In this document: positions 948-63,700 of the stretch, piece by piece
How the letters are laid out: each line of letters starts with the position of its first letter
Position numbering within the stretch: the stretch's first letter is position 1
IMG/VR virus record: IMGVR_UViG_3300045988_126190
Location: 5,268-69,267 of that record
Reading direction: 5' to 3' (one strand)
DNA: 64,000 bases
From: a virus
The notes under the pieces: generated by a model
Databases searched by the model: none
The model's input: only the letters and a program-made list of their open reading frames with translations
What the model was told of the DNA's origin: nothing
Translations under genes and position numbers: made by a program

Positions 948-1946
948 CTATCGCAGTTTTGCTACCATGTCGTCGCAGTAGCGGGAAATGTCGCACGGGT
1001 TGATGATCTGATATTTCTCGACGACCTTCTTGAAGTAGTCGTCAATCAGTTTCTTATCAATCGTGGCCGCGCTGCGGTCGTTTGGAAGCAAATTGCCTCG
1101 CGTTTCAATCCACGGGCGTTCGTTATGCGTAATTCGGCTCAGAACGCCGCCCGAATACATCCCGAATATATCTGCAACCGCGTTCATAAGGACGATTTCA
1201 CGCGTAGTAAACTCCGAAAAATCTTCGGCTTCTTCCATCGTCGGCATAGAAATCGGGTTCCATCCGCAGTCGCTGTACATCCGGTATATGTCGGGATAAA
1301 CAGGTCCATACGCCCACGCTTGGCAGTCGTCAGTGAAAAGGTCGGTACGGTACAATGCGCGGAAGAACGCCTGCGCAAAATACAGCAGTTTCTGGAGCAC
1401 CATAGGGGTAACTTCCTCGGCTCTGTGCAGCATATACCTTGCAACCAGCGCAATCTTGTCGCGACCGTACAGCACGGAAATCTTGTTTACCGCCGCCCTG
1501 CATTTTGCGTAGGCAACGGACGTGATACGGTCCTTGTTTTCCTCAAGGTACTTCCCCATCACGTCATGCGAGGACAGCACCTCCTTCAAGAGGTCAGAAT
1601 GCGCCTTTGACGGAAGCTGACCGCCGACGTAGCGGTTGATGGTCACATCGCCAAAACCCAGCAGTTTCGCAAGTGGGCCAGCGCCGATGTTGTATTTTTG
1701 GAGAATCTGTTCAATTTGCGCGACAGTGATCAGGTTGGCGGCTTTGCGGTATGCTTCATGTGCCGCAATAGCGTTTTCGTCGTTTACTTCAGCAACATAT
1801 GTTTCCTCGCCGCAAACAGTGCAGTAAGCAGTTCGTTCGACATAGCTAAATGTAATTCCGCGAACGGTCTGTTCGATTTTCCGCGACTTTACTTCATATT
1901 CTGTTTCAGCCCCGCAGTTGACACAAAAAGTATTCATATCGTTCAT
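948..1946 (-). CDS. antitoxin: MqsA-like zinc-ribbon/HTH fused to a Panacea (DUF4065) domain
   Basis: N-terminal CxxC...CxxC plus HTH. C-terminal LQKLLYFAQ...AWAYGPVYPDIY motif. ATG at 1946 has an AAGGGAG RBS and abuts the toxin stop. Confidence 0.75.
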   Translation of the reverse strand: MNDMNTFCVNCGAETEYEVKSRKIEQTVRGITFSYVERTAYCTVCGEETYVAEVNDENAIAAHEAYRKAANLITVAQIEQILQKYNIGAGPLAKLLGFGDVTINRYVGGQLPSKAHSDLLKEVLSSHDVMGKYLEENKDRITSVAYAKCRAAVNKISVLYGRDKIALVARYMLHRAEEVTPMVLQKLLYFAQAFFRALYRTDLFTDDCQAWAYGPVYPDIYRMYSDCGWNPISMPTMEEAEDFSEFTTREIVLMNAVADIFGMYSGGVLSRITHNERPWIETRGNLLPNDRSAATIDKKLIDDYFKKVVEKYQIINPCDISRYCDDMVAKLR

Positions 1947-1976
1947 AGAAGTTGCTCCCTTCACTTCACTTGGCAA

Positions 1977-2584: not shown

Positions 2585-2613
2585 TTGACATATGCCTAGG
2601 CGTATGTTATATT
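2585..2613 (+). promoter_or_regulatory. promoter of RHH cassette A
   Basis: TTGACA-17-TATATT with the palindrome GCCTAGGC in the spacer. Confidence 0.55.
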
Positions 2614-2645
2614 TTGTCTAGGCGAAAGTGAAGTGAGGTGAGAGT

Positions 2646-2834
2646 ATGCCGCCGAAAACAGGCCGTCCTATCGTTGGGACAGAGCCAAAAAACAAGCAAA
2701 TCGCACTCAGGGCAACCGAAACAACCGTCAGGAAATTTCAAGAATGTTCTGATGCCACGGGAAAAACCAAGACCGAATTGCTTGAAGAAATGGTGGATTC
2801 CCTGTACAAAGAGGTAACGGCTAAGAAAAAATAG
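2646..2834 (+). CDS. ribbon-helix-helix (Arc/CopG-like) regulator
   Basis: 62 aa with N-terminal GRP motif shared with the RHH genes at 3383 and 42509. GAGGTGAG RBS. Confidence 0.6.
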   Translation: MPPKTGRPIVGTEPKNKQIALRATETTVRKFQECSDATGKTKTELLEEMVDSLYKEVTAKKK

Positions 2835-2958: not shown

Positions 2959-3378
2959 ATGAATAACGAAATCCAGATTTTCAATTACAACGACCATGAA
3001 GTCAGAACCGTTCAGAAAGATGGCGAACCGTGGTTTGTCTTAAAAGACGTTTGCGGAATCCTTTCCATTGGGAATGTAGCTGATGTTTACGCTCGCCTTG
3101 ACACCGATGAAAAGGGGGTCGGCCAAATCGACACCCTTGGCGGACGGCAAAACATGAGCATTATCAACGAATCCGGACTCTACAACGTCATTCTCCGTTC
3201 CGACAAGCCAGAAGCGAAGCCCTTTCGCAAGTGGGTCACGTCCGAAGTCCTTCTATCTATGGTTGAAATGCACAATTCTGGTGCTGTGATTTTGTACATT
3301 ATGCCGCAAAATATTTTCTTGACATTTTTGCGTTCCGGAAATATAATTGAATTATCGGAACACAGAAATGCGAGGTGA
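2959..3378 (+). pseudogene. truncated Bro-N antirepressor
   Basis: Bro-N motifs are intact up to KWVTSEVL, then the frame runs into the promoter of the next cassette. Lacks the C-terminal half present in the 42800 paralog. Confidence 0.65.
3319..3347 (+). promoter_or_regulatory. promoter of RHH cassette B
   Basis: TTGACA-17-TATAAT with the palindrome TTCCGGAA (3333-3340) in the spacer. Confidence 0.55.
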
Positions 3379-3382
3379 AATT

Positions 3383-3556
3383 ATGGCTCCGAAGGCTGGG
3401 AGACCGAAGTCGGAGAATCCGAAGGATGTTGATGTGAAGGTAAGATTTGACAAGGAGCTGAACGCAAAGCTACTGCAATACTGTCAAAAACACGACATCA
3501 CGAGAACAGAAGCAATCCGGCGCGGTGTTCATCTGCTTCTCTCCCAAGAAAAATAG
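3383..3556 (+). CDS. ribbon-helix-helix (Arc-like) regulator
   Basis: MAPKAGRP...VRFDKE...EAIRRGV is homologous to the 42509 product. GAGGTG RBS. Confidence 0.7.
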   Translation: MAPKAGRPKSENPKDVDVKVRFDKELNAKLLQYCQKHDITRTEAIRRGVHLLLSQEK

Positions 3557-4620: not shown

Positions 4621-4760
4621 CCGTAGCCTTCACCATGAGAGGTCTTACATGGTCTCCCCGAGCGTATCGGTTCGGGCGTGTCCCGCCCTACCATATATTC
4701 TATCTACGCCAGCAGGCGCAGACCTTCGTTGAGGATGTTCTTCGCGGCGTTGATGTCCCG
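4570..4760 (-). ncRNA. putative TnpB omega (re)RNA
   Basis: Position overlaps the tnpB 3' end and extends to the right end, as in characterised TnpB elements. Not folded in detail. Confidence 0.4.
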
Positions 4761-5822
4761 GCCGTGGACTGTACCGCAAACCGGGCAAAACCACTCCCGC
4801 ACAGAAAGGTCTTTCGTTCCGGGCCACTGAGCACCACATACAGAGCAAAGCTGGCTGGACGGAAAGAAGCGGTCTATCGTGACCACCTGTTTTCCATACC
4901 ACTTTGACTTGTATTCCAACTGCCGCCGGAACTCACCCCACGATGCATCAGAGATGGACTTGGCCAGCCTGTGGTTCTTGACCATGTTCTTGGGCGCCAA
5001 GTCCTCAATGCAGATCAGATCGTACTGGCGCATAAGGTCAGTGGACAACTTGTGGAGCATATCCTGTCGCTGGTTGGCGACGTGCTCATGCAGTCTTGCC
5101 AACTGAAGCCTTGCTTTCTCCCGGCGGCTGCTCCCCTTTGTTTTTCGGGAGAGTTGCCGTTGGAGTTTTGCAAGTTTCTTCTGGCTCTTGGATAGATACT
5201 TATGGTTCGGATACTCCACACCATCGGAGGTGATTGCAAATGCTTTCAGCCCCATGTCGATGCCGACCACCGCCCCTGTAGATGGCAGCGGCTCCATATC
5301 AACGTCTGTACAGCACAGGGCTACGAAGTATTTTCCGCTTGGGGTCTGGCTGACGGTTGCGGACAGAACACGCCCCTCTACAGGCTTGCTGATCCGGCAT
5401 TTTACCTTTCCCAGTTTGGGGAGCTGTACAGAGCCTTCCAATACTTTGATATTTGCGCCAACGCACTTGCTCTTATAGCTTTGTCGATGGTTTCGCTTGC
5501 TCTTGAACTTTGGGTATCCGGGTTTCCCGCCTTTTTTGACCCGCCGAAAGAAGTTCTGATAGGCTGTATCCAAATCCCGCAGAGAGGATTGCAGGGCGGT
5601 TGCATCAACTTCCCGCAGCCAGATGGTTTCCTCCTGTTTCTTCAGAGACGTCAGGTCTTTGTCTTGCGTGAATCGTGTGGGAGATTTTCCTGTTTCCCTG
5701 TATGCCTCTATTCGCTGTGCAAGATAGTGATTCCAAACAAAACGACAGCAGCCAAATGTCCGGTGTATCTGTTGCGCTTGTGCGATATTGGGATAGATGC
5801 GGAATTTGTAGCTATATTCCAT
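4704..5822 (-). CDS. tnpB: TnpB RNA-guided nuclease
   Basis: 372 aa with RuvC motifs GIDMG, IEDL, RDINAA and zinc finger CSVCG...CPVCG. Confidence 0.9.
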
Positions 5823-5831
5823 TTCGGAACC

Positions 5832-6242
5832 TCACACATTCTTCTGGCCTTCTATGTACTGCTTGATGACTAACAATGGCGCACCGCCAACAGTAGATAC
5901 AAAATACGAGTTAGTCCACAGCGATGGGAGCCGCGACTGAAGCCAGCTAAATTCTTGTCTCAGAATCCGAGAAGTACGCCCTTTTATTTGTTTTACGGCT
6001 TTGTGTATCCCGAATTGCGGGTCTACTTCCATAAGCAAATGCACATGATCTGGCATAATTTCCATCTCTATGACATCGATGTGGAGTTCATGACAAATTT
6101 CATCTATGAGTTCCTTCAAGCGGGCATTGACACCATCGACCAAGACCTTACGGCGGTATTTTGGACACCAGACCACATGGTACTTGCAAGAGTACACCAC
6201 GTTGTTGTTGTTCTTATATTTCATGGAATTATTATACCACAT
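5832..6242 (-). CDS. tnpA: IS200/IS605 Y1 (HUH) transposase
   Basis: YHVVWCPKYRR, DHVHLL and YFVSTVG motifs. The start may be the internal Met at 6224. Confidence 0.9.
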   Translation of the reverse strand: MWYNNSMKYKNNNNVVYSCKYHVVWCPKYRRKVLVDGVNARLKELIDEICHELHIDVIEMEIMPDHVHLLMEVDPQFGIHKAVKQIKGRTSRILRQEFSWLQSRLPSLWTNSYFVSTVGGAPLLVIKQYIEGQKNV

Positions 6243-6434: not shown

Positions 6435-7463
6435 TCAGACAGCGGTGGAAAGGCTCATGCGCTTTTCGTTTCTGAGCGCTTCTTTTGCCATTGCGGCGAG
6501 GACTTCCTTTGCGGAGTTCTGACCCCGGCGCTGCATCAGACGACCGCAATAGCGCTGCGTCGTGGTGATGGAGACGTGACCAAGCTCGGACTGGACAAAT
6601 TCCATGCTGGCACCGGCATTCAGGAGAAGTCGGCTGCCGATATGACGAAGGTCGTGCGTCCGGACACCGGGAACGCCGGTGACGGAATTGACGTGGCGCT
6701 CGACAACGGAGGACAGCCACTGACTGCTTCCCCGGTGCCACTGCGCTTCTCCGCTGGTGAAGGTGCCGAATTCATGCGCGGCGGTCGTGCCGAACAAAGG
6801 CGCGGTATCGGGAGCATCAGCCGGACGAATGCCGGAGGCCAGATAAAGCCGGACGGCGCTCTGGGCAAAGGGCGTGAACTGCACGCAGCGGTACTTGTTG
6901 CCCTTGCCGTGCTCGACGTTGATCTCACCGTTTTCAAAGTCGAGATCGCAGAGACGAAGGTCGAGCAATTCCGAATTTCTGATCTGACTCGTCAGTAGAA
7001 TTGCCGTGATGGCGTAATTTCGCGGCCACATCGCTCTCATTTGCGACGCGGGGCATTCGTTGACGACCAGACGGGAAAGTTTCGTGTCGGGCAAAATAAT
7101 GTCATACGGACGGCTCTCCGTTTTCGGATAAAACTCCGGCTCGACCGGATTAACGGGGTATTGAAGCTCCCGGCCGAACAGAGGCTTACGAAAAGCAGAG
7201 AAGAAGTACGACAGCTCGTTGAGGTACTGCTTAACGGTCGTGGCCTTTTTGCCGCCGTTAAGCATGGCATCACGCCAAGAAAGAATCACGGAATAATCCG
7301 GGTCGGTTTCCGGCTCTGCGCTCTCGCAGTTGGAAATCCAGTAGCTCCGGAACAGCGTAAGCCGCGTTGCATAGTTGCGCAACGTCTTTTCCGATGTGTT
7401 CTTCATTCTCAAGTTCTGAAGGTAGGCTGACGTCGCCGCGTCAAACTTCTCTAGCGCTGTCAT
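6435..7463 (-). CDS. tyrosine recombinase (XerC/D-like phage integrase family)
   Basis: C-terminal THDLRH...LGHVSITTTQRY catalytic motifs. GGGAGG RBS before the ATG at 7463. Confidence 0.85.
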   Translation of the reverse strand: MTALEKFDAATSAYLQNLRMKNTSEKTLRNYATRLTLFRSYWISNCESAEPETDPDYSVILSWRDAMLNGGKKATTVKQYLNELSYFFSAFRKPLFGRELQYPVNPVEPEFYPKTESRPYDIILPDTKLSRLVVNECPASQMRAMWPRNYAITAILLTSQIRNSELLDLRLCDLDFENGEINVEHGKGNKYRCVQFTPFAQSAVRLYLASGIRPADAPDTAPLFGTTAAHEFGTFTSGEAQWHRGSSQWLSSVVERHVNSVTGVPGVRTHDLRHIGSRLLLNAGASMEFVQSELGHVSITTTQRYCGRLMQRRGQNSAKEVLAAMAKEALRNEKRMSLSTAV

Positions 7464-7523
7464 AGCTTCTTCCTCCCTGCTTTTTTGTTGTAGCACGCTT
7501 TGTTTCCTCGTGTCTACAGTTGC

Positions 7524-7552
7524 ATTATATCAGTTGCTAGCAACATTGTCAA
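7524..7552 (-). promoter_or_regulatory. consensus promoter with palindromic operator GTTGCTAGCAAC
   Basis: Minus-strand TTGACA-17-TATAAT. The operator at 7533-7544 also occurs in the promoter at 60358. Confidence 0.6.
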
Positions 7553-7582: not shown

Positions 7583-8296
7583 TCAGACGAGTTTTCGGAT
7601 GGCATCAACAGCCTTTCGGGTGTAGCGGAAGGTCTGGACCTCCTTGTTGCTGTAGGGGCTTTTATCAAAGAACCACTTGCCGTATTCGGCGGTTTTGAGT
7701 CCGTTCTGGTTGGCGATTTTTCCGACGCGGTTTGCGGTGATACCGAGTGCGGCGGCAATTTCGGCGGCGGAATAGTAGCGATCGATCTTGCATTCCGGCA
7801 GCGGGATGACCTCCTTGCCTCCGGATAGAACGGAGCTGGCGTAGCTGCTGCACACCTGCTTATATTCCGGTGTTGCGAGGTTGCCGATCTCAAGCCACAG
7901 GGCGGCAACATTGGCGCGGCTGTTGTTCAGGTCAATCTCAAGCCGCTGCTTCTGCAAGGGGTCGGCTGTGTAGGAGCCGGTTTTCCGAATGGACGGAAGA
8001 ACCTCGGACGTGACCCAGCGTTTGAATTTCTTCGCAGTGGGCAGTTTGGAGCCGATAATGAGGGCGTAGAGGCCGGATTCGTTGATGATGGTTTGATTCG
8101 GATTGCCTTTTCCGTCGCGAATCGCGACGGTATTCCGGTCATCGTCATCTACGTGCTTAGCGATGGCATCTCTGGGGTTGCTGTAGCCCAGAATGTCCGC
8201 TACATCCTTTCCGACGAACCACGGTTCGCCGTTGATTGTGGTGGTTCGGACTTGGCCGAACTCGTCGTTCTTAAAGATTTGGATTTCTTTGCTCAT
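7583..8296 (-). CDS. Bro-N domain protein with C-terminal DNA-binding-like region
   Basis: IQIFKNDEFGQVRT, PWFVGKDV, RWVTSEVLPSIRK. Confidence 0.8.
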   Translation of the reverse strand: MSKEIQIFKNDEFGQVRTTTINGEPWFVGKDVADILGYSNPRDAIAKHVDDDDRNTVAIRDGKGNPNQTIINESGLYALIIGSKLPTAKKFKRWVTSEVLPSIRKTGSYTADPLQKQRLEIDLNNSRANVAALWLEIGNLATPEYKQVCSSYASSVLSGGKEVIPLPECKIDRYYSAAEIAAALGITANRVGKIANQNGLKTAEYGKWFFDKSPYSNKEVQTFRYTRKAVDAIRKLV

Positions 8297-9262: not shown

Positions 9263-9669
9263 GCTAACGCACCCCCTGCCATGTGCAACCCCGGCAGAAC
9301 ATCCATCTTGTAGCCGCTTTTGACGAAACGCCTTGCCAGTTCCGTGTCGATTCCGTTCCACAACCACTCATAAATAACGGTGATATCAGTCTCGGAAAAC
9401 GATGTGCCGCAAAATTCGTTAATCCCACGAAGATGATACTCATGTACCTCTTTGTTTCTCCACTCCACGCTGTAATGGCAAGATTCACACGCCTCCCGTG
9501 ATAACCACTCAAGGCACTTTACCCTCACATCTTCTTCCGTTTCGCACTTTCCCAATGCAAAATAGGAATTCACACGCGGGTTCGGGTCGGCAACAAACTC
9601 GATTTGGCCGTTAATGATTGCTTTTGGGAATGCGTGGAACAACTTTTTCAATGTACTCTGGTTAACCAT
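9259..9669 (-). CDS. hypothetical phage protein
   Basis: GGAGGAG RBS. 136 aa. Confidence 0.6.
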   Translation of the reverse strand: MVNQSTLKKLFHAFPKAIINGQIEFVADPNPRVNSYFALGKCETEEDVRVKCLEWLSREACESCHYSVEWRNKEVHEYHLRGINEFCGTSFSETDITVIYEWLWNGIDTELARRFVKSGYKMDVLPGLHMAGGALA

Positions 9670-12100: not shown

Positions 12101-12474
12101 TATGCTCCCTCCTTCGGCGCTTCCGGCAGCGGCATCCAATAAACAATTTCGTCGCCCCAAGCGTCCCAAAAGTCCGTTGGGGCAAGCCAGTCTATTCCGT
12201 TCCAAATCGCTACCATAAAGAGCTTTCGCCTCGTATACACAAGCATAGCTTCGCTTTTTCTTGTATTTTGGTGCACTTCTGGCAAGCGCTCCTCCACCGG
12301 AATCCACCTCGGCACCTTCGCTTCCAGCTCCGCAATTCGTGCCGCCTGCTGCTCGATCAGGTCGGCGGCATCAAAGATCATTGTGTCGCAGTCCAATCTC
12401 TTGCAATATGGGCAATCTCCGCAGGACCGTCTTCCGCACGCCCGCAGTGCCTTAACAATCTCATCTTTTGTCAT
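12100..12474 (-). CDS. DUF551-like protein
   Basis: PRWIPVEERLP...YWMPLPEAP. The N-terminus is near-identical to the 33799 product. Confidence 0.6.
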   Translation of the reverse strand: MTKDEIVKALRACGRRSCGDCPYCKRLDCDTMIFDAADLIEQQAARIAELEAKVPRWIPVEERLPEVHQNTRKSEAMLVYTRRKLFMVAIWNGIDWLAPTDFWDAWGDEIVYWMPLPEAPKEGA

Positions 12475-13181
12475 GTCGCTTCCTCCTCATACGCCTCTCT
12501 CAGTTTCCGAATCACGCTGCCGCCGTAGCTGTTTTCTGTGAGCTTGATAAACTCCTCCACCGTCAGCAGCTCGTCATCCGTGAGTTTGTATCCGTGGCGC
12601 TTGGCGAACTCCGACCGCCCCATATCGCAGGAGCCGGTCAGCCTGTGATGCCAGCCGTAGTAATCTGCCGAGGGATATTGCTTTCCCCACTCGTGCGCCT
12701 TGACGAACTCGGCAATTCTCTCCTCCTCCGGCATATCCTCGAACAGTTTGTCCCGCAGCGCATCCATCGCCGCGCGGAGCGTTTTCCCGTGGGCAAAAAG
12801 GCTGCCCTGCTTGACGATGTAGCAATCCTCTGTCGAGAGGTCGTCGCAAAGAATTCGCCCCTTGGCAGCGTTCCCGTGTACATGGTCAATGAGCGTTGGA
12901 ACGTCGTCAATTTGATATACCTTTTGGCCGCAAAAGGACACAACCCCCTTGTCGTAGCCGTAGCCGGAGCCGTAGCCGGGGCCGTAGCCGGGGCCGCAAC
13001 CGGAGCCGTAGCCGGAGCCGTAGCCGTCGCCGTAGCCGGAACCGTCATCGCCGCCGTAGCCGGAGCCGCCGCCGGAGCCTAATCCGTCGCCGTAGCTGGA
13101 GCCGCCGCCGGAGCCGTCGCCGCGGCCGATGCTGTCTACAGCCTCAGCGAACCGCTCCGCCGCCGTTTTCAGCGCTTCCAT
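12471..13181 (-). CDS. protein with Gly/Tyr/Ser-rich low-complexity N-terminal region
   Basis: About 60 aa of GSGYG/GPGYG repeats followed by a globular C-terminal domain. Confidence 0.65.
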   Translation of the reverse strand: MEALKTAAERFAEAVDSIGRGDGSGGGSSYGDGLGSGGGSGYGGDDGSGYGDGYGSGYGSGCGPGYGPGYGSGYGYDKGVVSFCGQKVYQIDDVPTLIDHVHGNAAKGRILCDDLSTEDCYIVKQGSLFAHGKTLRAAMDALRDKLFEDMPEEERIAEFVKAHEWGKQYPSADYYGWHHRLTGSCDMGRSEFAKRHGYKLTDDELLTVEEFIKLTENSYGGSVIRKLREAYEEEAT

Positions 13182-26289: not shown

Positions 26290-26868
26290 ATGAACGCGTA
26301 TCAAGAGCTGGCGCCACGCTTCGACACCTACCGCGATACCATCAAGGCTGCAAAAGCAAAGAAGGGGTATTCCCTATCAACGCTCGCCGAAGAATCCGGC
26401 GTTGCATATTCGGCAGTCAGCCGCCTATGCGACGGAACACAGTCTGAACCGAAACTGTTTAACGCCGTCGCACTTTGCAAGGTGCTGGGCATATCCATTG
26501 ACGACACCTTCGGGCTGAGATCGCCGACGGAGGAAAACACAGAGCAATTGCGGGAAAGAATCCACTGGCTGGAGCTGAAAAATGCTGAGCTTCGCGGAGA
26601 AAACGAGCGGTTAGAAGCAACTAACCAGATTCTGCAAAATGGCATCGACGCACGAAGGCCGTTGATCTATATTTTGCTGAGCTTGTGCGTCGCGCTGGCG
26701 TGTGGCATTGGTGTCTATCTTGTAATTGACGCGAATATCCGCGACGCAGGGCTGATACAGTTCGGCAATTTTTCACCCGGCGCGTGGGCTTTTGCCGCTG
26801 TGATCGTCGGGACACTGGCATCCGTGGTCATTGCCACACTGAAAATTACCAAAAAGCAAAGAAAATAG
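26290..26868 (+). CDS. membrane-anchored XRE-family regulator
   Basis: N-terminal HTH, a coiled coil and two C-terminal transmembrane segments. Confidence 0.65.
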   Translation: MNAYQELAPRFDTYRDTIKAAKAKKGYSLSTLAEESGVAYSAVSRLCDGTQSEPKLFNAVALCKVLGISIDDTFGLRSPTEENTEQLRERIHWLELKNAELRGENERLEATNQILQNGIDARRPLIYILLSLCVALACGIGVYLVIDANIRDAGLIQFGNFSPGAWAFAAVIVGTLASVVIATLKITKKQRK

Positions 26869-26891
26869 CGAACAAAAGCGAGGCATTCCCT

Positions 26892-27917
26892 ATGTATATC
26901 CCAGAACCAAAGAAAAATAAAGACGGAACATGGAGCATTCAGCTCAGAATCAACAAGCAATCCATCATGGTAAACGCTGATTCCGCCAAGGAATGCAAGC
27001 GCCGCGCGGCTATCGTCAAGGCAGAGGCGCAGAACGCCGCTAAACCAATAAAAAAGAGCGAGCTGACACTCACTCAGGCAATCGACGAATACATCAATAC
27101 GCGCCAAAATTCGCTGTCTCCGTCCACAATACGCGGCTACCGCATCATTCAAAGGACACGCTTTCAGTCTACGATGCCGCGCAGAATTTCAACGATCCAG
27201 CAAAACGAATGGAGAAAAATCATTGACGAGGAGCTTGGCGTCGCCTCGAAAAAGACTGTGAAAAATTCTTGGGCGTTCGTAAAATCCGTACTCAAGGAAA
27301 ACGGCATCACGCCGGACGATAGCGTGAAGGTCGCGCCGCAGCGAAAGAAAAGCGATGCGGTTTGGCTGGAACCGGACGAAATCAAGAAGTTTGTTGCCGC
27401 CGCTGCCGATAATTCTCTGTGCATACCAATGTTGCTTGCGCTGATGGGAATGCGCTTATCTGAAATAAAAGCCCTTCGGTGGGAAAAGATCGACAGAGAT
27501 GCGGAGATCATCCGAACCAACGGTGCCGTGGTGCGAAATGAGGATGAGAAGTACGTATATAAAAGCGAACAGAAAAATATTTCGTCTGACCGCGCGGTCC
27601 CGCTGCTGATGCCGGAGCTTCGTGCGGCGATTCGGCGCGAGTGGAAGTCGGAAGGAGATGTTCTTACCGTTGCAGAAAGTACGCTCAGACGGACGGTCGC
27701 CAGAGTGTGCGAGAAGGCGGGCGTGAAACGAGTAACCATTCATCAGCTTCGCCATAGCTTCGCCTCCCTATCCGCGCATTTGCGAATTCCAAAGGAAATC
27801 TCCAGAGAGATCGGCGGATGGAGCAATGATAAAATCATGGACGAGATTTACACCCACATAGCGCAATCGGATATCGAGCGATACAAAAATGAGCTTTGGA
27901 AGTTCTACAATGAGTAA
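26892..27917 (+). CDS. int: tyrosine integrase
   Basis: RLSE...HQLRHSFASL...GGWSNDKIMDEIYTH catalytic motifs. Adjacent to the att site. Confidence 0.9.
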   Translation: MYIPEPKKNKDGTWSIQLRINKQSIMVNADSAKECKRRAAIVKAEAQNAAKPIKKSELTLTQAIDEYINTRQNSLSPSTIRGYRIIQRTRFQSTMPRRISTIQQNEWRKIIDEELGVASKKTVKNSWAFVKSVLKENGITPDDSVKVAPQRKKSDAVWLEPDEIKKFVAAAADNSLCIPMLLALMGMRLSEIKALRWEKIDRDAEIIRTNGAVVRNEDEKYVYKSEQKNISSDRAVPLLMPELRAAIRREWKSEGDVLTVAESTLRRTVARVCEKAGVKRVTIHQLRHSFASLSAHLRIPKEISREIGGWSNDKIMDEIYTHIAQSDIERYKNELWKFYNE

Positions 27918-27995
27918 AAAATTTTCTGCGCATAACGCGGAATTTTTCGTTGAGCAGCCCGTTTTTGTGAGCATAGCAACGATACAGAACACGCT

Positions 27996-28020
27996 CGATA
28001 GCATTCTCGATAGCATTATT
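27996..28020 (+). repeat. arm-type direct repeat (GATAGCATT x2), left of core
   Basis: CGATAGCATTCTCGATAGCATTATT, 22/25 identical to 28226-28250. Confidence 0.55.
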
Positions 28021-28115
28021 GATTTTGAATTTTGCTATTGACGCGTGAAATATGGAGTATCCGTTCCAAAAATGGAACAATCAGAAAGCCCGCAAACCAT
28101 TGGAAATAAAGGAAA

Positions 28116-28152
28116 AGCCTCGAAACACTGATGTTTCAAGGCTTTTCTTTTT
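28116..28152 (+). terminator. intrinsic terminator abutting att core
   Basis: AAGCCTCGAAACA/TGTTTCAAGGCTT stem followed by TTTTCTTTTT. Confidence 0.6.
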
Positions 28153-28179
28153 GGCGGAGAGGGCGGGATTCGAACCCGA
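28153..28179 (-). other. att core: 27-nt tRNA 3'-end fragment (T arm + acceptor + CCA, Ser-like)
   Basis: Reverse complement is CGGGTTCGAATCCCGCCCTCTCCGCCA. No matching 5' acceptor strand or D/anticodon arms lie beyond 28180. Confidence 0.7.
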
Positions 28180-28225
28180 AAGATATTAGCTTAAAACGCT
28201 GTGTTTTCAATGGTTTCAAAATTAC

Positions 28226-28250
28226 GATAGCATTTTTGATAGCATTATTT
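28226..28250 (+). repeat. arm-type direct repeat, right of core
   Basis: CGATAGCATTTTTGATAGCATTATT. The inverted repeat AAACCATTGRAAA (28094-28107 / 28207-28220) also brackets the core. Confidence 0.55.
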
Positions 28251-28844
28251 CCCAGCGGTTGAAGCTTGGTATGCTGAATTCGTTTTTGTGAGCATAGCGC
28301 CAATGTCGTGTTTCATATTATTATTACGGTTTGTTATATGGAATGCAATTATTTTATCAAAAATTTTTTCTTTATTCTTTGCGAGTCGGAATCGTTTTTG
28401 TGCGCATAGGCGCGGGTTCGCGATTCTTCGCGGAGTTGAGGCCGTTTTTATGAGCATAGCGGCAGAAATCTGATGGAAGCATTTTCGTTTCTCTGAGTAT
28501 AGCGGCAAAAAAACTCGGCACGGCATTTTTGTTTTTCTGAGCATAGTCCGGGCTTGAAAATAATTACACAAGCATCGGGGAAAATATCGGGTGCTTCGCG
28601 CAAAGCTCGAAAAAGCTCCGACCGGGAAATCCGTTTTTCTGAGCATAGCAACGGATATTCCCGGCCGGAAAGCTCGTTTTTGTGAGCATATCGGGCAGCG
28701 GACGACGGTTTTCTGCGGACGGGCATCACGCAGCCGCGCCCGGAGGCACCTTCAAAATAGACAGCGGCAAGCAGTTTTTCATAGCTGATCATTTTTTCAA
28801 ATCCTCCATATTTTGAGAGAGGCGCAGCCGAAGCCGCGCCAATT

Positions 28845-30838: not shown

Positions 30839-31021
30839 TTATTTGTTGTTGTTGTCCTGAATTAACCTTTTAATTGCGCCGGTTGCAGATAGGCCGGAAG
30901 CCTTCAGCGCTTCGATTTTTGCGATCAGCTCGGCATCTTCGATCTTTCGCAGCTTTAACATATATTGCGAGTAGGTTTTTGTTTCGTATCGCCGTTTTGC
31001 TTCGTTGCTAACTTTTCCCAT
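30839..31021 (-). CDS. ribbon-helix-helix protein
   Basis: MGKVSNEAKRRYETKTYSQYMLKLRK... AGGGGTGA RBS. Confidence 0.55.
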   Translation of the reverse strand: MGKVSNEAKRRYETKTYSQYMLKLRKIEDAELIAKIEALKASGLSATGAIKRLIQDNNNK

Positions 31022-42746: not shown

Positions 42747-42775
42747 ATTATACATCGGAGCGGCTTCCTTGTCAA
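42747..42775 (-). promoter_or_regulatory. antisense consensus promoter
   Basis: Minus-strand TTGACA-17-TATAAT. Confidence 0.6.
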
Positions 42776-43693: not shown

Positions 43694-43709
43694 ACTACAT
43701 AGTGCAATG

Positions 43710-43792
43710 CAGCCGCGAATGGGCGGCTGTGAAGAGCAAAGAGGCTCATTGACACAGGAGACTGTGTTAATGGGTCTCTTTTTTGTTGTTTT
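43710..43792 (+). terminator. hairpin + GAGCAAAGAGGCTC + long terminator (copy 1)
   Basis: CAGCCGC/GCGGCTG hairpin, the 14-mer at 43734-43747, AGAGGCTCATT/AATGGGTCTCT stem, then a T-run. Confidence 0.6.
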
Positions 43793-43825
43793 CACAGATT
43801 ATTCAACCAAGGAAGTGATTATCAC

Positions 43826-56700: not shown

Positions 56701-56722
56701 CGGAGCATTTCGCCAAGCGCTG

Positions 56723-56804
56723 CGGCCGCGAAGGGGCGGCCGTTGAGAGCAAAGAGGCTCATTGACACAGGAAACTGTGCCGATGGGTCTCTTTTCGTTG
56801 TTTT
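56723..56804 (+). terminator. hairpin + GAGCAAAGAGGCTC + terminator (copy 2)
   Basis: CGGCCGC/GCGGCCG hairpin. 14-mer at 56747-56760. Same long stem as copy 1. Confidence 0.6.
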
Positions 56805-56840
56805 ACAAACAATTTTTGGTTCATCGGAAGGAGAGTTAGA

Positions 56841-59410: not shown

Positions 59411-60094
59411 TTATTCCTGCCCACTTTGGTACATCATGTCTACAAAGGTTTCAATCCCGTCAACGTGTTCAAGCAGGTTCGCCTTCGGTGCCTGCTTCAT
59501 TGGGTCTAAAATAAAATCAATGCCGCTCCTGCGAGCAATTTTAGCAACAGGAAGGAAATCACTATCTCCTGCGATTAACACGATCTGGTTCGCAAGTTTC
59601 CCTGCGGCAATCGAAGCTGCATCAAGCCCAATTCGCATGTCGACACCTTTTTGTTTTACGTCCAAACGGAAATCCCAATCGGTAAGGTCGGACACCGCCC
59701 GGCGACCGCTAAGAAGGTCAGATACGACAGAAGGCTTAAGTATGAATTCAGCCTGATTTTCAGCTAATTCCCCGCGTCGAATTGCAACCTTTCTTTTTGC
59801 TGCCAGTTTTTCAAAAAAGTCTCGCGTCCATTTCGTTCCGGCACCACGAGAAAAGTCAATTGCATTTCCTGTTAACGGATGGACGATTTGTCTCGTCATT
59901 CCGGGGCAGTCGTAATAGAATATTCGGTAGAGATCGCGCGGCTCATCCGGTTCAGAAATATGCAAAAAACAATAATGGAATAGCTCATTTGCACGTTCTT
60001 CTGCGCTTTTTGTTCCCCACAAGGCGGCCGCGCGCTTGCGATAGTACCCGCCGTCTACCAAAATGGCAGTTTTTCTTATCTCTTTCTGATTCAT
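59411..60094 (-). CDS. NYN (LabA/DUF88-like) domain protein
   Basis: AILVDGGYY ... GVDMRIGLD ... IVLIAGDSDFLPV. Opposite strand and visibly AT-richer than its flanks. Confidence 0.75.
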   Translation of the reverse strand: MNQKEIRKTAILVDGGYYRKRAAALWGTKSAEERANELFHYCFLHISEPDEPRDLYRIFYYDCPGMTRQIVHPLTGNAIDFSRGAGTKWTRDFFEKLAAKRKVAIRRGELAENQAEFILKPSVVSDLLSGRRAVSDLTDWDFRLDVKQKGVDMRIGLDAASIAAGKLANQIVLIAGDSDFLPVAKIARRSGIDFILDPMKQAPKANLLEHVDGIETFVDMMYQSGQE

Positions 60095-60357: not shown

Positions 60358-60387
60358 TTGACTTAGTTGCTAGCAATGCTGTATACT
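60358..60387 (+). promoter_or_regulatory. promoter with operator GTTGCTAGCAAT
   Basis: TTGACT-18-TATACT. The TTGCTAGCAA palindrome at 60367-60376 matches 7533-7544. Confidence 0.6.
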
Positions 60388-60414: not shown

Positions 60415-60600
60415 ATGGAGCGGAAAAGTCGCGCAGATTACTATCGGAAACGACGGGAGGCAATCGGGCAATTCAGCGTTCCGATGCCGCGAGATAAGCT
60501 GGAAGCGCTCACGAAGAAGCTGAAGGCCGAGGGAAAGACCAAAACAATGTGGCTGACCGAGAAAATCGACGAGGAAATCGGCACAAAGCACGAAGAATAA
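60415..60600 (+). CDS. ribbon-helix-helix regulator
   Basis: AGGAGG RBS. FSVPMPRDKLEALTKKLKAEGKTKTMWLTEKI. Confidence 0.6.
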   Translation: MERKSRADYYRKRREAIGQFSVPMPRDKLEALTKKLKAEGKTKTMWLTEKIDEEIGTKHEE

Positions 60601-60630: not shown

Positions 60631-60707
60631 GTCACAGGCTGGTGACTGCAAGGAGCAAAGAGGCTCGGAAAACGGAGAAAAACCGTTTTTCGGGGCTTTT
60701 TTTGTTT
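60631..60707 (+). terminator. hairpin + GAGCAAAGAGGCTC + terminator (copy 3)
   Basis: GTCAC/GTGAC hairpin. Identical 14-mer at 60653-60666. Stem followed by TTTTTTT. Confidence 0.55.
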
Positions 60708-60730
60708 CCTACGTCAAATGATAGGTAGGT

Positions 60731-63700
60731 ATGTCTATGGAAAGTGTAAAATTAACAGTCCAAGTCGTTGATGCGCAGCTGACGCAGCTGGAAAACCGGG
60801 TCAATGCGCTCAAAAACACGCCAATCTCGCTGAAAATCAACGCCACCGGACTGGACAAGGCGACCAAGGATACGACCGCGCTTATCAAGGCCTGCACAAA
60901 GCTCGTTGAGGCGCAGGTGCAGGTCACGAAGGCGGAAAACGCGCTGGAAAAGCAGCGGCTTTCGACCGAGGCTTCGGCAAACCGGGCAAGGACGGCGGAG
61001 GCAAACCTCGCAAAGCAGCACGCGGCGACCGCGACAGAGCAGGCGCGGCTTGCCACGCAGCAGGAAAAGACGGCCACTGCGGCGAAAAACCTTGAAATTC
61101 AGCAGGAAAAGACGAATACGGCGGTTGCGAAGGGCGAGGCTTCGGCAAACCGGGCAAGCCTCGGCTTCAGTACGCTGTTGTCAACCTATCTCCAATTTGC
61201 GGCGATCTCTGCGGTAAGAAGCGGGATTTCGGACGCATTTGAGACCATGAAGGATGTTGACACGCAGATTATCAACATTCAGAAGGTCACGGACGCGACG
61301 GATGCGGCGATGGACACGCTTTCCGAACGCGCATATTCCACCGCGTCGAAGTACGGCGTGGCGGCAAATGAATACCTTGCCGCTGCGGCAGCCTTTGCTA
61401 AGGCCGGTTACTCCAACTATGAGGAGCTGGCAGAGCTGGCGACGAAAACGCAGCTCGTCGGTGACGTGACGGCTGATGTTGCGTCGAAATTCCTGCTCTC
61501 TGCGGATGCGGCATACAAATTCGGCGGAAACGCGGATGAGCTGGCGACCGTTCTTGACAAGGCCAACGTGATTGAAAACAATTACGCCACCTCGATTGAA
61601 AAGATGGCGGCAGGCTTCCCGAACGTCGCCTCCACAGCCTCGATGGCGAAGGTTTCCATTGATGAGCTGATGGCGGCGCTCGGCACGGTCACGGCGGTCA
61701 CGCAGGAGAGCGGCGAAAAGGCCTCCTATGCGCTGCGCTCTCTGTTTTTGAATATCCTCGGTGACGTCGGCGCGGAAATTGACGAAACCACGAAGGTCAC
61801 TGCGGACAGCGTGAACACCCTTTGGGGCGTTATCTCGAAATATGCCGACGAATCGCTGATTGCGGCGCACAACGCCGGGGAGCTTATCGACCCGATGGAA
61901 GCGATTAAGGCGCTTTCCGAGGCGCAGAAGGACAATCTGCTGGAAGAAGCAGACCTGATGCAAATCGTTATGGCGCTCGGCGGCAAGCTGCGCACGAACC
62001 AGTTAAACGCCCTCATTTCCAACTACGACATGTACGAGGAAATGCTCTCGCAGATCAAGACCGCAACCGGCAGCGCCGACCAAGAGGTTGCAACCATGAG
62101 CAAGAGCTGGGAGGCAAGCCTCAAGCGGCTCAGAAACACATGGACACAGTTTGTTTCGCATGTGGTCAGCAGCGATACCCTTGTGAACGGGATCAAGTTT
62201 CTCGAAAAGCTGGTCAAGCTACTGGATAACGGCTTTGTCGCGCTAATTGCAAAGGTCGTTCTTCTCACTTCTGTCATCAAGCCGCTGTCGTCCGGCATTG
62301 CGAAACTGATTGTCGGCTTCAAGAATACTCTCGGCGCTGTAAAGAATCTGCCTCGCTATCTTCAGCTTCTTGGTGCTTCCGAAAAAGAACTCGAAGCGGT
62401 TGGACTTAGTGCTGCTGGTGCGCAAACTGCACTCAGTGTAGCGATTAGCGGGGTCCTTGTCGTCATCACGGGCGCCATCATGCTACATACTAAACTAAAG
62501 CAGGAAGCGGCAGAAACCGCCGAGAAACTTCAAGCTTCCGCTAATGCAGCTCGCGAAGATGCAGAGGAAAGTGCCAACGCTGTAGAAAAACTCATTGAAC
62601 TCCGTGGTGCTTATGAGCAGTCTAAAACGAAAGGCGACGTTGCAACAGAGGCTGCGAAAAACCTTGCCGAGGCCCTGAAAGAGGTTGGAATTTCCGCAGA
62701 CGGGGCGAAAGAATCTCTTTCCGGCTACGCTGATGAGGCAATCCGCAGCAATATAGAATCTGGGCTGAAAGAAGCCAGAAACGCAAAATCTAAAGCTACA
62801 GCGGCCCTGTATCATGAAGCTTCGACTGGCAGATCGGGGGAAAGCTCGGTTGCGTTTGATATGTTACGCGCCCTCGGCATTCAAGGCGACAAGAACTACG
62901 ACGAAAGATTCTTTTCTGGTTCGACCGCATTTGCGAACCTTCGTAACGCCAAGGAAAACGAACAGCTAATTCTACAGTATTATGATTGGCTTGTCGGCAT
63001 GAGCGAAGAGGTCGCAAATCTTGCTGAGGCTGACCCTGCAATATGGAACAAATATGCGGTCAAGGGTTTAATGGACGCAATTTCATCCCTCGAACCCGCT
63101 GTCACGACTTATCGAGAATCTACGGCAACGGAAGCTTCTTTTTACGGAATGCAGGCCGCATATCAAACCGCAATCCGTAGCGCTGAAGAATATAACAGAA
63201 AAATCGAAACCGTTTCCAATAACGAGGCGCTTTCTTCGGAGTACAGAGAGAACTACATCTCCACCCTTCAGGCGCTTTATCCGGAATATGCCGCGCAGGC
63301 AGAAGCAATTGACGAAGTAACCAGCGCCGCAGACGCTTCCAATGCGAGCGGCAAGAGGTTTATCGACACCCTGTTTGACGAAAAGGGCGCATTGAAGGAT
63401 TCTGCGGCGGCAACGCTGGAGGCCAACGGTGCCTTGCAGCAGATGGCCACCACCCAAGCCAAGGAGGATTGGGACGCCGCGACCGAGCACTTTAACAGTC
63501 TTGTTGAAAGCCTCGGCGGCGAGGACAGTGCCCTCGTCGTTAAGGCCCTTGAGCTTATCAGTTTGGGCAGTGAGGCGGCTGAAGCAGAGCTCGCCAAAAT
63601 GGGAGACGCCGGCAAGGATGTCGGAGACGCGATGCAACTGCTTGGCTCTGCGCTTGACGACGCGAACGCCAAGCAGGAGCTCTACAATATCATCACCAAG

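Follow-up and report, generated by a model that had tools for sequence, protein, structure and literature searches.

Ribbon-helix-helix (RHH) proteins share a core of about 45 amino acids (aa), composed of a β-strand, helix A and helix B, and their dimers contact palindromic or repeated operators through an antiparallel β-sheet which enters the major groove. Arc and Mnt, of the immI region of phage P22, are small repressors of this superfamily (53–83 aa), whose operators overlap strong promoters and which exert negative autoregulation. In the same manner, CopG, ParG, omega, SvtR and AvtR are small dimeric repressors which act on promoter-overlapping repeats and regulate themselves as well as other genes. 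Here we describe a 64,000-nucleotide stretch of viral DNA (positions 5,268 to 69,267 of the IMG/VR record IMGVR_UViG_3300045988_126190, referred to as the window), in which the promoter of a 61-aa gene and the promoter of a tyrosine recombinase gene carry the same palindrome. The original prediction, made from the letters of the window, had considered the 61-aa product an RHH regulator which acts on its own gene and represses the recombinase. We find it probable that the 61-aa protein, as a dimeric Arc-like RHH protein on GTTGCT/AGCAAC, would repress itself and, in trans, the recombinase. The circuit logic, in which a small RHH repressor sits on a strong promoter, is classical. The features concerned are the following.

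6435–7463, minus strand: tyrosine recombinase, XerC/D-like, 342 aa, with an N-terminal SAM-like and a catalytic domain.
7552–7524, minus strand: recombinase promoter, TTGACA-AT-GTTGCTAGCAAC-TGA-TATAAT, a consensus sigma-A/sigma-70 promoter.
7533–7544: recombinase-promoter operator, GTTGCTAGCAAC, a perfect 12-bp palindrome within the spacer and a candidate trans target of the 61-aa protein.
60358–60387, plus strand: promoter of the 61-aa gene, TTGACT-TA-GTTGCTAGCAAT-GCTG-TATACT.
60366–60377: operator of the 61-aa gene, GTTGCTAGCAAT, palindromic at 11/12 positions, in the spacer of its own promoter and the proposed autoregulatory site.
60415–60600, plus strand: 61-aa Arc-like (probable RHH) repressor, phrog_3896, predicted from the family profile and the operator.
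60664–60694, plus strand: intrinsic terminator, with a 12-bp stem and a T-run, which closes the 61-aa gene cassette.

Both promoters were found exactly as they had been read at first. On the minus strand, the recombinase promoter has its -35 box TTGACA at 7552–7547 and its -10 box TATAAT at 7529–7524, separated by a spacer of 17 nucleotides (nt; AT-GTTGCTAGCAAC-TGA). It is a 12/12 match to the consensus, with an extended -10 TG in addition, and is followed downstream by a GGGAGG ribosome-binding site (RBS) and the ATG at 7463. The promoter of the 61-aa gene has TTGACT at 60358–60363 and TATACT at 60382–60387 with an 18-nt spacer (TA-GTTGCTAGCAAT-GCTG), and an AGGAGG RBS lies ahead of the ATG at 60415. 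In both promoters, 2 nt separate the -35 hexamer from the start of the palindrome, in agreement with the shared site and the shared offset that had been claimed. At the recombinase promoter, where it is perfect over 12 bp, the palindrome is better than the own site of the 61-aa gene (11/12), and GTTGCTAGCAAC equals the consensus of the own operators across the family of the 61-aa protein. Outside the palindrome, the likeness of the two promoter regions was not convincing. The 5′ leader of the recombinase gene (7470–7523, minus strand) holds an imperfect hairpin, TGTAGACAC-N15-GTGCTACA, a feature that every promoter of the GTTGCTAGCAAC type shares and that the shorter leader of a second, GTGGCCAC type lacks.

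The 342-aa protein has the R-K-H-R-H/W-Y catalytic domain and the SAM-like core-binding domain which define tyrosine recombinases, with matches to Pfam PF00589 (9e-22) and PF02899 (1e-5) and to the PHROG integrase annotation. The motifs RNSE, GKGNKYR, HDLRH, LGH and QRY are readable in its translation. Its first description as a XerD-like recombinase agrees with the domain architecture and catalytic motifs. Its gene occupies the distal end of the early operon under a promoter of its own, and the enzyme is accessory, being the second recombinase of the phage.

The original prediction had left room for further copies of the palindrome, and for the palindrome being frequent by chance. We found exactly 2 copies of TTGCTAGCAA in the window, versus 0.06 expected, and 2 copies were reached in 0 of 100 shuffles. 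Allowing 1 mismatch added no site in the whole window; the 12-mer at 2 mismatches gave two extra matches in the window, within the chance level, and no half-site enrichment was detected there. Among 1888 promoter-like site pairs in the window, the pair described here shares 11 nt at the same offset and the runner-up shares 8, and the same test on 20 shuffles gave a maximum shared run of 6–10 nt. Taken without the comparative data that follow, these statistics are suggestive. Two other candidates were treated as chance, namely a second half-site 3′ of the recombinase -10 (TATAATGCAAC), since its geometry is unlike that of the second operator in the family, and GTTAGCAAC at 31004–31012, since it lies within coding sequence. 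An operator scan of IMG/VR returned 44 matches, mostly chance matches within genes, with only L020, L037, L060, L061 and L043 being relevant (L numbers are our own handles). In a group of unrelated AT-rich phages in IMG/VR (L019, L041, L046, L048 and L053), TTGCTAGCAA lies upstream of and just after the -35 box (tttttgctagcaaaagtaTTGACAAGTTGCTAGCAAg) in promoters which precede various small genes, and this group may have the same or a similar repressor specificity. In the literature, the operator is described in no paper, and its string turned up solely in NheI-containing primers.

Compared with PHROGs, the 61-aa protein matched phrog_3896 over its full length (E = 2e-20), for which the listed function is 'unknown'. 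An exhaustive profile search for its family gave 124 representative clusters (~124 at 50% identity), and relatives occur in genomes of Oscillospiraceae, Lachnospiraceae and other Clostridia. Homologues with 57–70% identity were identified upstream of Bro-N/ORF6C or ORF6N antirepressor-type genes (L011 and L012–L017), and all homologues in this range have a GTTGCTAGCAA(C/T)-type palindrome in the promoter spacer, usually with a second copy right after the -10. In L020, the homologue and a Bro-N gene are flanked by the terminase and portal genes, and in L061 the homologue is one of three small RHH genes in tandem, which precede a Bro-N/ANT gene. Besides these loci, an antirepressor-type gene was present downstream of the family gene in 12 of 52 genome loci.

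The relation between protein and operator was examined in 56 further loci, from Clostridia and others, which a search through 185,579 species genomes had yielded. In most members of the family, the -10 of the own promoter is flanked by two 12-bp GTnnnn/nnnnAC palindromes. The core GCTAGC was present within 80 nt upstream for 26 of the 29 proteins with a GQF[SN] strand (mean 1.6 sites), compared with none of the 27 whose strand differs (Fisher p = 5.5e-13, without correction for phylogeny), and its background in these loci is 0.02 per kb. The other strand types have other GTnnnn/nnnnAC 12-bp palindromes at the same two positions, and the same strand goes with the same core in independent loci, as in the following types.

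Strand KTFSV: core TTACGCGTAA (L123, L136 and L137).
Strand K[LI]FTVEV: core GTTGCACGCAAC (L131 and L144).
Strand KSFNVLL: core GTAGCACGCTAC (L124 and L125).
Strand GQF[MY]AM: core GTAGCTAGATAC (L122 and L129).

Altogether, the family has at least 10 operator core types, whose positions in the promoter are fixed. What we observe directly are the sequences, how they are conserved and how the operator co-varies with the protein, and such co-variation of strand and core is the signature expected of a sequence-specific autoregulator. Since the core co-varies with the strand and the operator travels with the gene, GTTGCT/AGCAAC is the predicted site of the 61-aa protein of the window. The autoregulation by the product of the gene at 60415, as originally proposed, is strongly supported by this comparison. 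One of the loci, L129 (a metagenome-assembled genome of Bacillota), has a 50%-identical member with the operator GTAGCTAGATAC directly upstream of a tape-measure-like gene, which indicates that a second lineage also uses the slot in front of the tape-measure gene.

Within the window, the 61-aa gene is flanked by a YomN-like tail gene and by the gene for the tape measure. The latter starts at ~60725–60737, just past the terminator, and the 61-aa gene cassette is probably transcribed independently of the late operon. At least 92 contigs encode the identical protein, in every case behind an identical promoter in the slot between the YomN and tape-measure genes, and more than 10 related contigs share this promoter unchanged, whether or not a neighbouring NYN-domain gene is inserted. 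In L009, L078 and L083, an open reading frame (ORF) for a 494-aa RRXRR (HNH-like) protein is inserted right after the 61-aa gene, at which point the C-terminus of the small protein is altered to give a 64-aa form; this ORF precedes the tape-measure gene and may represent a mobile intron or homing element.

On the side of the recombinase, a tblastn search identified an unannotated faecal phage as the nearest phage record (48%) and otherwise distant integrases. Pattern scans of IMG/VR and the species genomes detected no relatives of the recombinase, no integrated copies with a close recombinase homologue were found in the 185,579 species genomes, and no flanking inverted repeats that would hint at an invertible segment were detected. 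The ten contigs which carry an identical neighbouring 97-aa gene all have the 342-aa recombinase, with the GTTGCTAGCAAC promoter in 9 of the 10. As far as contigs with the GTTGCTAGCAAC promoter could be paired by name, all of them (4/4) also carry the 61-aa gene with its operator.

Among related phages, the promoter scaffold AAAACCTCTTGAC...TATAAT...GCAGGGAGGAAGAAGCTATG is kept and the operator within it differs. The GTGGCCAC type was found in three of them, L069, L063 (recombinase 85% identical) and L067 (96% identical), in which the upstream scaffold AAAACCTCTTGAC, the -10 and the RBS are kept and the operator reads TTTTTGTGGCCAC...-10...GTGGCCACAAAAA. This operator closely resembles TTTCTTTGTGGGCAC...-10...GTACCCGCAAAGAAA, which belongs to the own promoter of a 59-aa 'GIKKGTKLTD' RHH in these same phages. 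In L064–L066 (recombinase 71% identical), the same scaffold has a third palindrome, ATAGTTTAATAACTAT, followed by a 60-aa RHH-like gene and then by the recombinase. In L147 and L148 (71% identical), a 60-aa 'MGIHKGTKLTD' RHH (phrog_876) is translationally coupled to the recombinase, and in L147 the gap between the YomN and tape-measure genes is 134 nt long with no gene in it. More distant recombinases, with 54–57% identity, lack this promoter. The patterns in L063–L067, L069 and L147/L148 indicate that the recombinase has repeatedly come under a small repressor of the RHH type, whether cis- or trans-encoded, with the operator as the exchangeable part. The repression of the recombinase by the 61-aa protein, the other half of the original prediction, is supported less directly, namely by the 9/10 relatives, the 4/4 paired contigs, the exchanged operators and the lineages with a cis-encoded RHH.

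The predicted layout of the 61-aa protein consists of a basic N-terminal helix (SRADYYRKRRE), the strand GQFSVPM, helix A, a G-K-T turn and helix B. The turn between helices A and B reads E-G-K-T-K-T at residues 39–44, with its G and T conserved across the family, and corresponds to the G-x-S/T/N turn of RHH proteins. With a 61-member profile, the best PDB matches were ParG, SvtR and AvtR, all of them RHH proteins and in register, and one homologue weakly matched the Pfam family RepB-RCR_reg (E = 0.0023). Aligned by hhalign with the other small RHH proteins of the phage, the family gave a probability of 69% (E = 4e-5), and these other proteins match ParG, SvtR, phrog_876 ('transcriptional repressor') and phrog_582 ('Arc-like repressor'). 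The same comparison with P22 Arc, for which the query sequence was confirmed against PDB 1arq/1arr/1par, gave 52% (E = 1.4e-4) with QF, PRE and G-x-S/T aligned. An AlphaFold monomer modelled with the 61-sequence alignment (pLDDT 84) is extended at residues 17–25 and has helices at 26–39 and 43–60, with an extra N-terminal helix at 6–16. As judged from these alignments and the model, the 61-aa protein is probably an Arc-like RHH protein. The regulatory argument is independent of the fold.

The window is a rotated 64-kb piece of a circular phage genome of ~69.1 kb. It is near-identical to a 69,203-bp human-gut metagenome contig with a 55-nt terminal overlap, and coordinate arithmetic gives a circle of 69,148 bp. 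Since the genome is circular and the window is rotated, the two operator sites lie 16.2 kb apart on the circle, across the window ends; the 53 kb given at first was an effect of linearisation, and the true spacing is ~16 kb.

In the proposed circuit, a dimer of the 61-aa protein would bind the inverted repeat GTTGCT/AGCAAC. At its own promoter, where the operator separates the -35 from the -10 box, it would block RNA polymerase and so exert negative autoregulation, and the same protein would occlude in trans the very strong recombinase promoter ~16 kb away. The recombinase promoter would then fire only when there is little or no repressor, as for instance right after a naive cell has been infected. 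Entry into a repressor-free cell would lead to a burst of recombinase followed by its shut-off, by analogy with the control of Pant by Arc/Mnt, and in an established lysogen, prophage or carrier genome the recombinase would be held silent. Read-through from the upstream early operon could be a second route of expression, perhaps on induction. We infer the fold and the binding, together with the sign of repression from the operator position and the timing from the gene layout.

Several points weigh against this circuit. The close relatives which have both sites are near-identical overall, and their agreement is partly shared descent. Most family members have two operators and the two promoters of the window have one each, so that cooperative tetramer binding may not occur. 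In other genomes, 50 family genes were checked and no extra trans sites were detected within 6 kb of them, which implies that trans regulation is not general in the family. As for the fold, the 61-aa protein had no Pfam match, the E-values of the PDB profile matches are marginal (0.07–0.4), and the monomer model cannot show an intermolecular β-sheet. Two Foldseek searches gave nothing significant, with VapB 5x3t (E = 7.6) as the sole listed match, and a single-sequence AlphaFold model had no significant fold match either. The RHH identity claimed at first is therefore pointed to by the profile and hhalign comparisons, at marginal scores, and is not backed by Pfam or Foldseek.

Some of these points would suit a 61-aa protein that regulates only itself, in which case the palindrome at the recombinase promoter would be a leftover of promoter-cassette exchange with little or no effect, either because the lone site is too weak or because the protein level is too low. 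The usual pair of operators in the family and the lack of trans sites near family genes elsewhere fit this explanation, and the promoter core and leader segment have clearly been exchanged between relatives. We nevertheless consider it unlikely, as the site is a perfect palindrome at the same spacer offset in a 12/12 promoter, is better than the repressor's own and is kept in 9/10 relatives; moreover, other lineages put the recombinase under a cis-encoded RHH, and a bound operator at that position would occlude RNA polymerase. It is still less probable, and by a good deal, that a different protein (a host regulator or a helix-turn-helix (HTH) repressor of the phage) binds both palindromes and that the 61-aa gene is merely one of the regulated genes. 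The phage does encode several HTH regulators, and both the fold and the DNA binding of the 61-aa protein rest on prediction. However, the core co-varies with the strand of the small protein across hosts and contexts, which is unexpected for an unlinked factor, and the palindrome moves with the gene into unrelated phages.

We give marginally less credit again to the 61-aa protein being an activator or timing factor, or to the palindrome at the recombinase promoter being part of a recombination site. The sign of the regulation is deduced from position only, which leaves some room here; yet an operator between the -35 and -10 of promoters that already match the consensus has the classic geometry of occlusion. 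The same element also precedes dozens of small genes with no recombinase nearby. Core sites of tyrosine recombinases have a central spacer of 6–8 bp, and a 12-bp palindrome without such a spacer is unlike them. Finally, a coincidence in which two strong promoters happen to share an 11-nt string is hardly credible. Although 1 of 20 mononucleotide shuffles gave a 10-nt shared run in promoter-like pairs, the exact 10-mer is expected 0.06 times, and the string is palindromic, has the same offset in both promoters, and in relatives is both conserved and co-varying, so that the comparative data effectively refute coincidence. Repression of both genes by the 61-aa protein is thus the explanation that we prefer.

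Beyond this locus, and rather more tentatively, phrog_3896 might be a large Arc-like family with a 12-bp code set by the strand, and gut Clostridia phages might swap orthogonal operators to re-wire the control of their recombinase. The gating repressor may then be encoded in cis or in trans, with the trans copy possibly within the tail operon. The operator exchanged inside a conserved scaffold would be a clear case of temperate phages re-wiring recombination control. What is proposed here is a function and a precise DNA target for a widespread phage family which is absent from Pfam and of unknown function in PHROGs, together with a regulatory wire from a gene of the tail module to a recombinase at the end of the early region, two genes which annotation by gene order would never join. 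The natural series of proteins and operators would also offer candidate orthogonal repressor-promoter pairs for Gram-positive synthetic biology.

With regard to the genome context, the order round the circle is: a YomN-like gene, the NYN-domain gene, the 61-aa gene, the tape-measure and tail genes, a SocA/Panacea toxin-antitoxin-like pair, two RHH-Bro-N cassettes, IS200/IS605 tnpB and tnpA, the recombinase, a Bro-N gene, the leftward early operon (RecT, SSB and replication), CI/Cro-like HTH genes, and a second tyrosine integrase at 26784–27917. A megablast search with 44 kb of the window gave essentially no match among 50,697 phage records, no characterised phage being close, and all long contigs look like free circular genomes. 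Other features which border on the two genes or resemble the 61-aa gene cassette are listed below.

2585–2834, plus strand: RHH cassette 1, a promoter with GCCTAGGC twice (in the spacer and after the -10) and a 62-aa RHH gene, upstream of Bro-N.
3319–3556, plus strand: RHH cassette 2, a promoter with GTTCCGGAA and CGGAAC and a 57-aa RHH gene, upstream of Bro-N/ANT.
7583–8296, minus strand: antirepressor-like Bro-N gene, the immediate upstream neighbour of the recombinase promoter, listed for context only and missing in some relatives.
59411–60094, minus strand: NYN-domain gene, with the YomN-like gene on one side and the 61-aa gene promoter on the other, found only in this contig.

Since the NYN gene occurs only in this contig, it is outside the proposed circuit. 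A toxin-antitoxin pairing of the 61-aa gene with it was rejected, as the NYN gene is divergent, has its own promoter and is confined to this contig, and relatives keep the 61-aa gene without it. The cassette at 2585–2834 is, by its predicted operators, an orthogonal repressor-operator pair of the same design as that of the 61-aa gene. The RHH-Bro cassettes (2585–2834, 3319–3556 and those in L063–L077) have a common upstream scaffold, gaaactgtgcaaattgacgaaaaaattttttgagaatgggg-TTGAC, and each RHH type among them has its own inverted repeats flanking the -10, with at least 6 repressor-operator types. Consensus leftward promoters at 2906–2934 and 42747–42775 (minus strand) lie just upstream of Bro-N starts and face back into the RHH gene.

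Immediately downstream of the recombinase gene there is an IS200/IS605 element (4704–6242, with tnpA at 5832–6242 and tnpB at 4704–5822), an insertion shared with L075 and absent from most relatives. The toxin-antitoxin-like pair in the accessory region, with its own promoter, consists of a SocA/Panacea-domain protein with an MqsA-like N-terminus (948–1976, minus strand) and a 131-aa partner (1977–2372). Downstream of the second integrase gene, the region 27959–28700 has six copies of a 23-nt motif (CCGTTTTTGTGAGCATAGCAACG-like), five copies of a 39-nt motif and two copies of CGATAGCATT(C/T)T(C/T)GATAGCATTATT, which may be arm-type sites of the integrase in attP, or iterons. A 12-nt tandem repeat of ~13 units (12916–13140) lies inside the minus-strand ORF 12471–13181, which is hence internally repetitive. 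A 96-nt two-hairpin element, with 80% identical copies at 43708–43803 and 56721–56816 and another in L064 (~9440–9520), delimits Bro-N/ANT cassettes at their 3′ end. In the intergenic slot at 56721–56816, L007 has an IS605 tnpB and L004 a complete RHH and Bro-N/ANT cassette, and these varied inserts suggest a hot spot for cassette insertion.

Compared with the immI region of P22, the 61-aa gene cassette likewise has an operator overlapping its own promoter, conserved in position and sequence, from which self-regulation is deduced. The motifs QF(N/S), PRE and G-x-S/T of Arc align in register with the 61-aa family. Homologues in the family lie directly upstream of Bro-N/ORF6N/ANT antirepressor genes, which is a further likeness to immI, and the antisense consensus promoter between RHH and antirepressor genes in the RHH-Bro cassettes of the window recalls Psar. 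On the other hand, no antirepressor gene lies downstream of the 61-aa gene in the window and in more than 10 relatives, where a terminator and then the tape-measure gene follow. The 61-aa gene is an orphan cassette of the tail module, and its proposed second target is the promoter of a recombinase. The family differs from Arc itself in its extra basic N-terminal helix, SRADYYRKRRE, in a sequence similarity below HMMER significance, and in its predicted site, a self-palindromic 12-mer, whereas the Arc operator is 21 bp long with two subsites.

Among the other small RHH repressors, ParG, SvtR and AvtR are the best, though marginal, profile matches of the family. Unlike CopG, ParG and omega, the 61-aa gene has no context of plasmid copy number or partition, and the Pfam RHH models miss its family. 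The 342-aa recombinase has the domain architecture and catalytic motifs of XerC/XerD and phage integrases, but is only 24–28% identical to annotated XerD and phage integrases. It also differs from them in being the second recombinase in a phage with an integrase beside CI/Cro-like genes, and in that its transcription is apparently gated by exchangeable RHH operators. For phrog_3896, to which PHROGs gives no function, the operator code and autoregulation proposed here make a new annotation.

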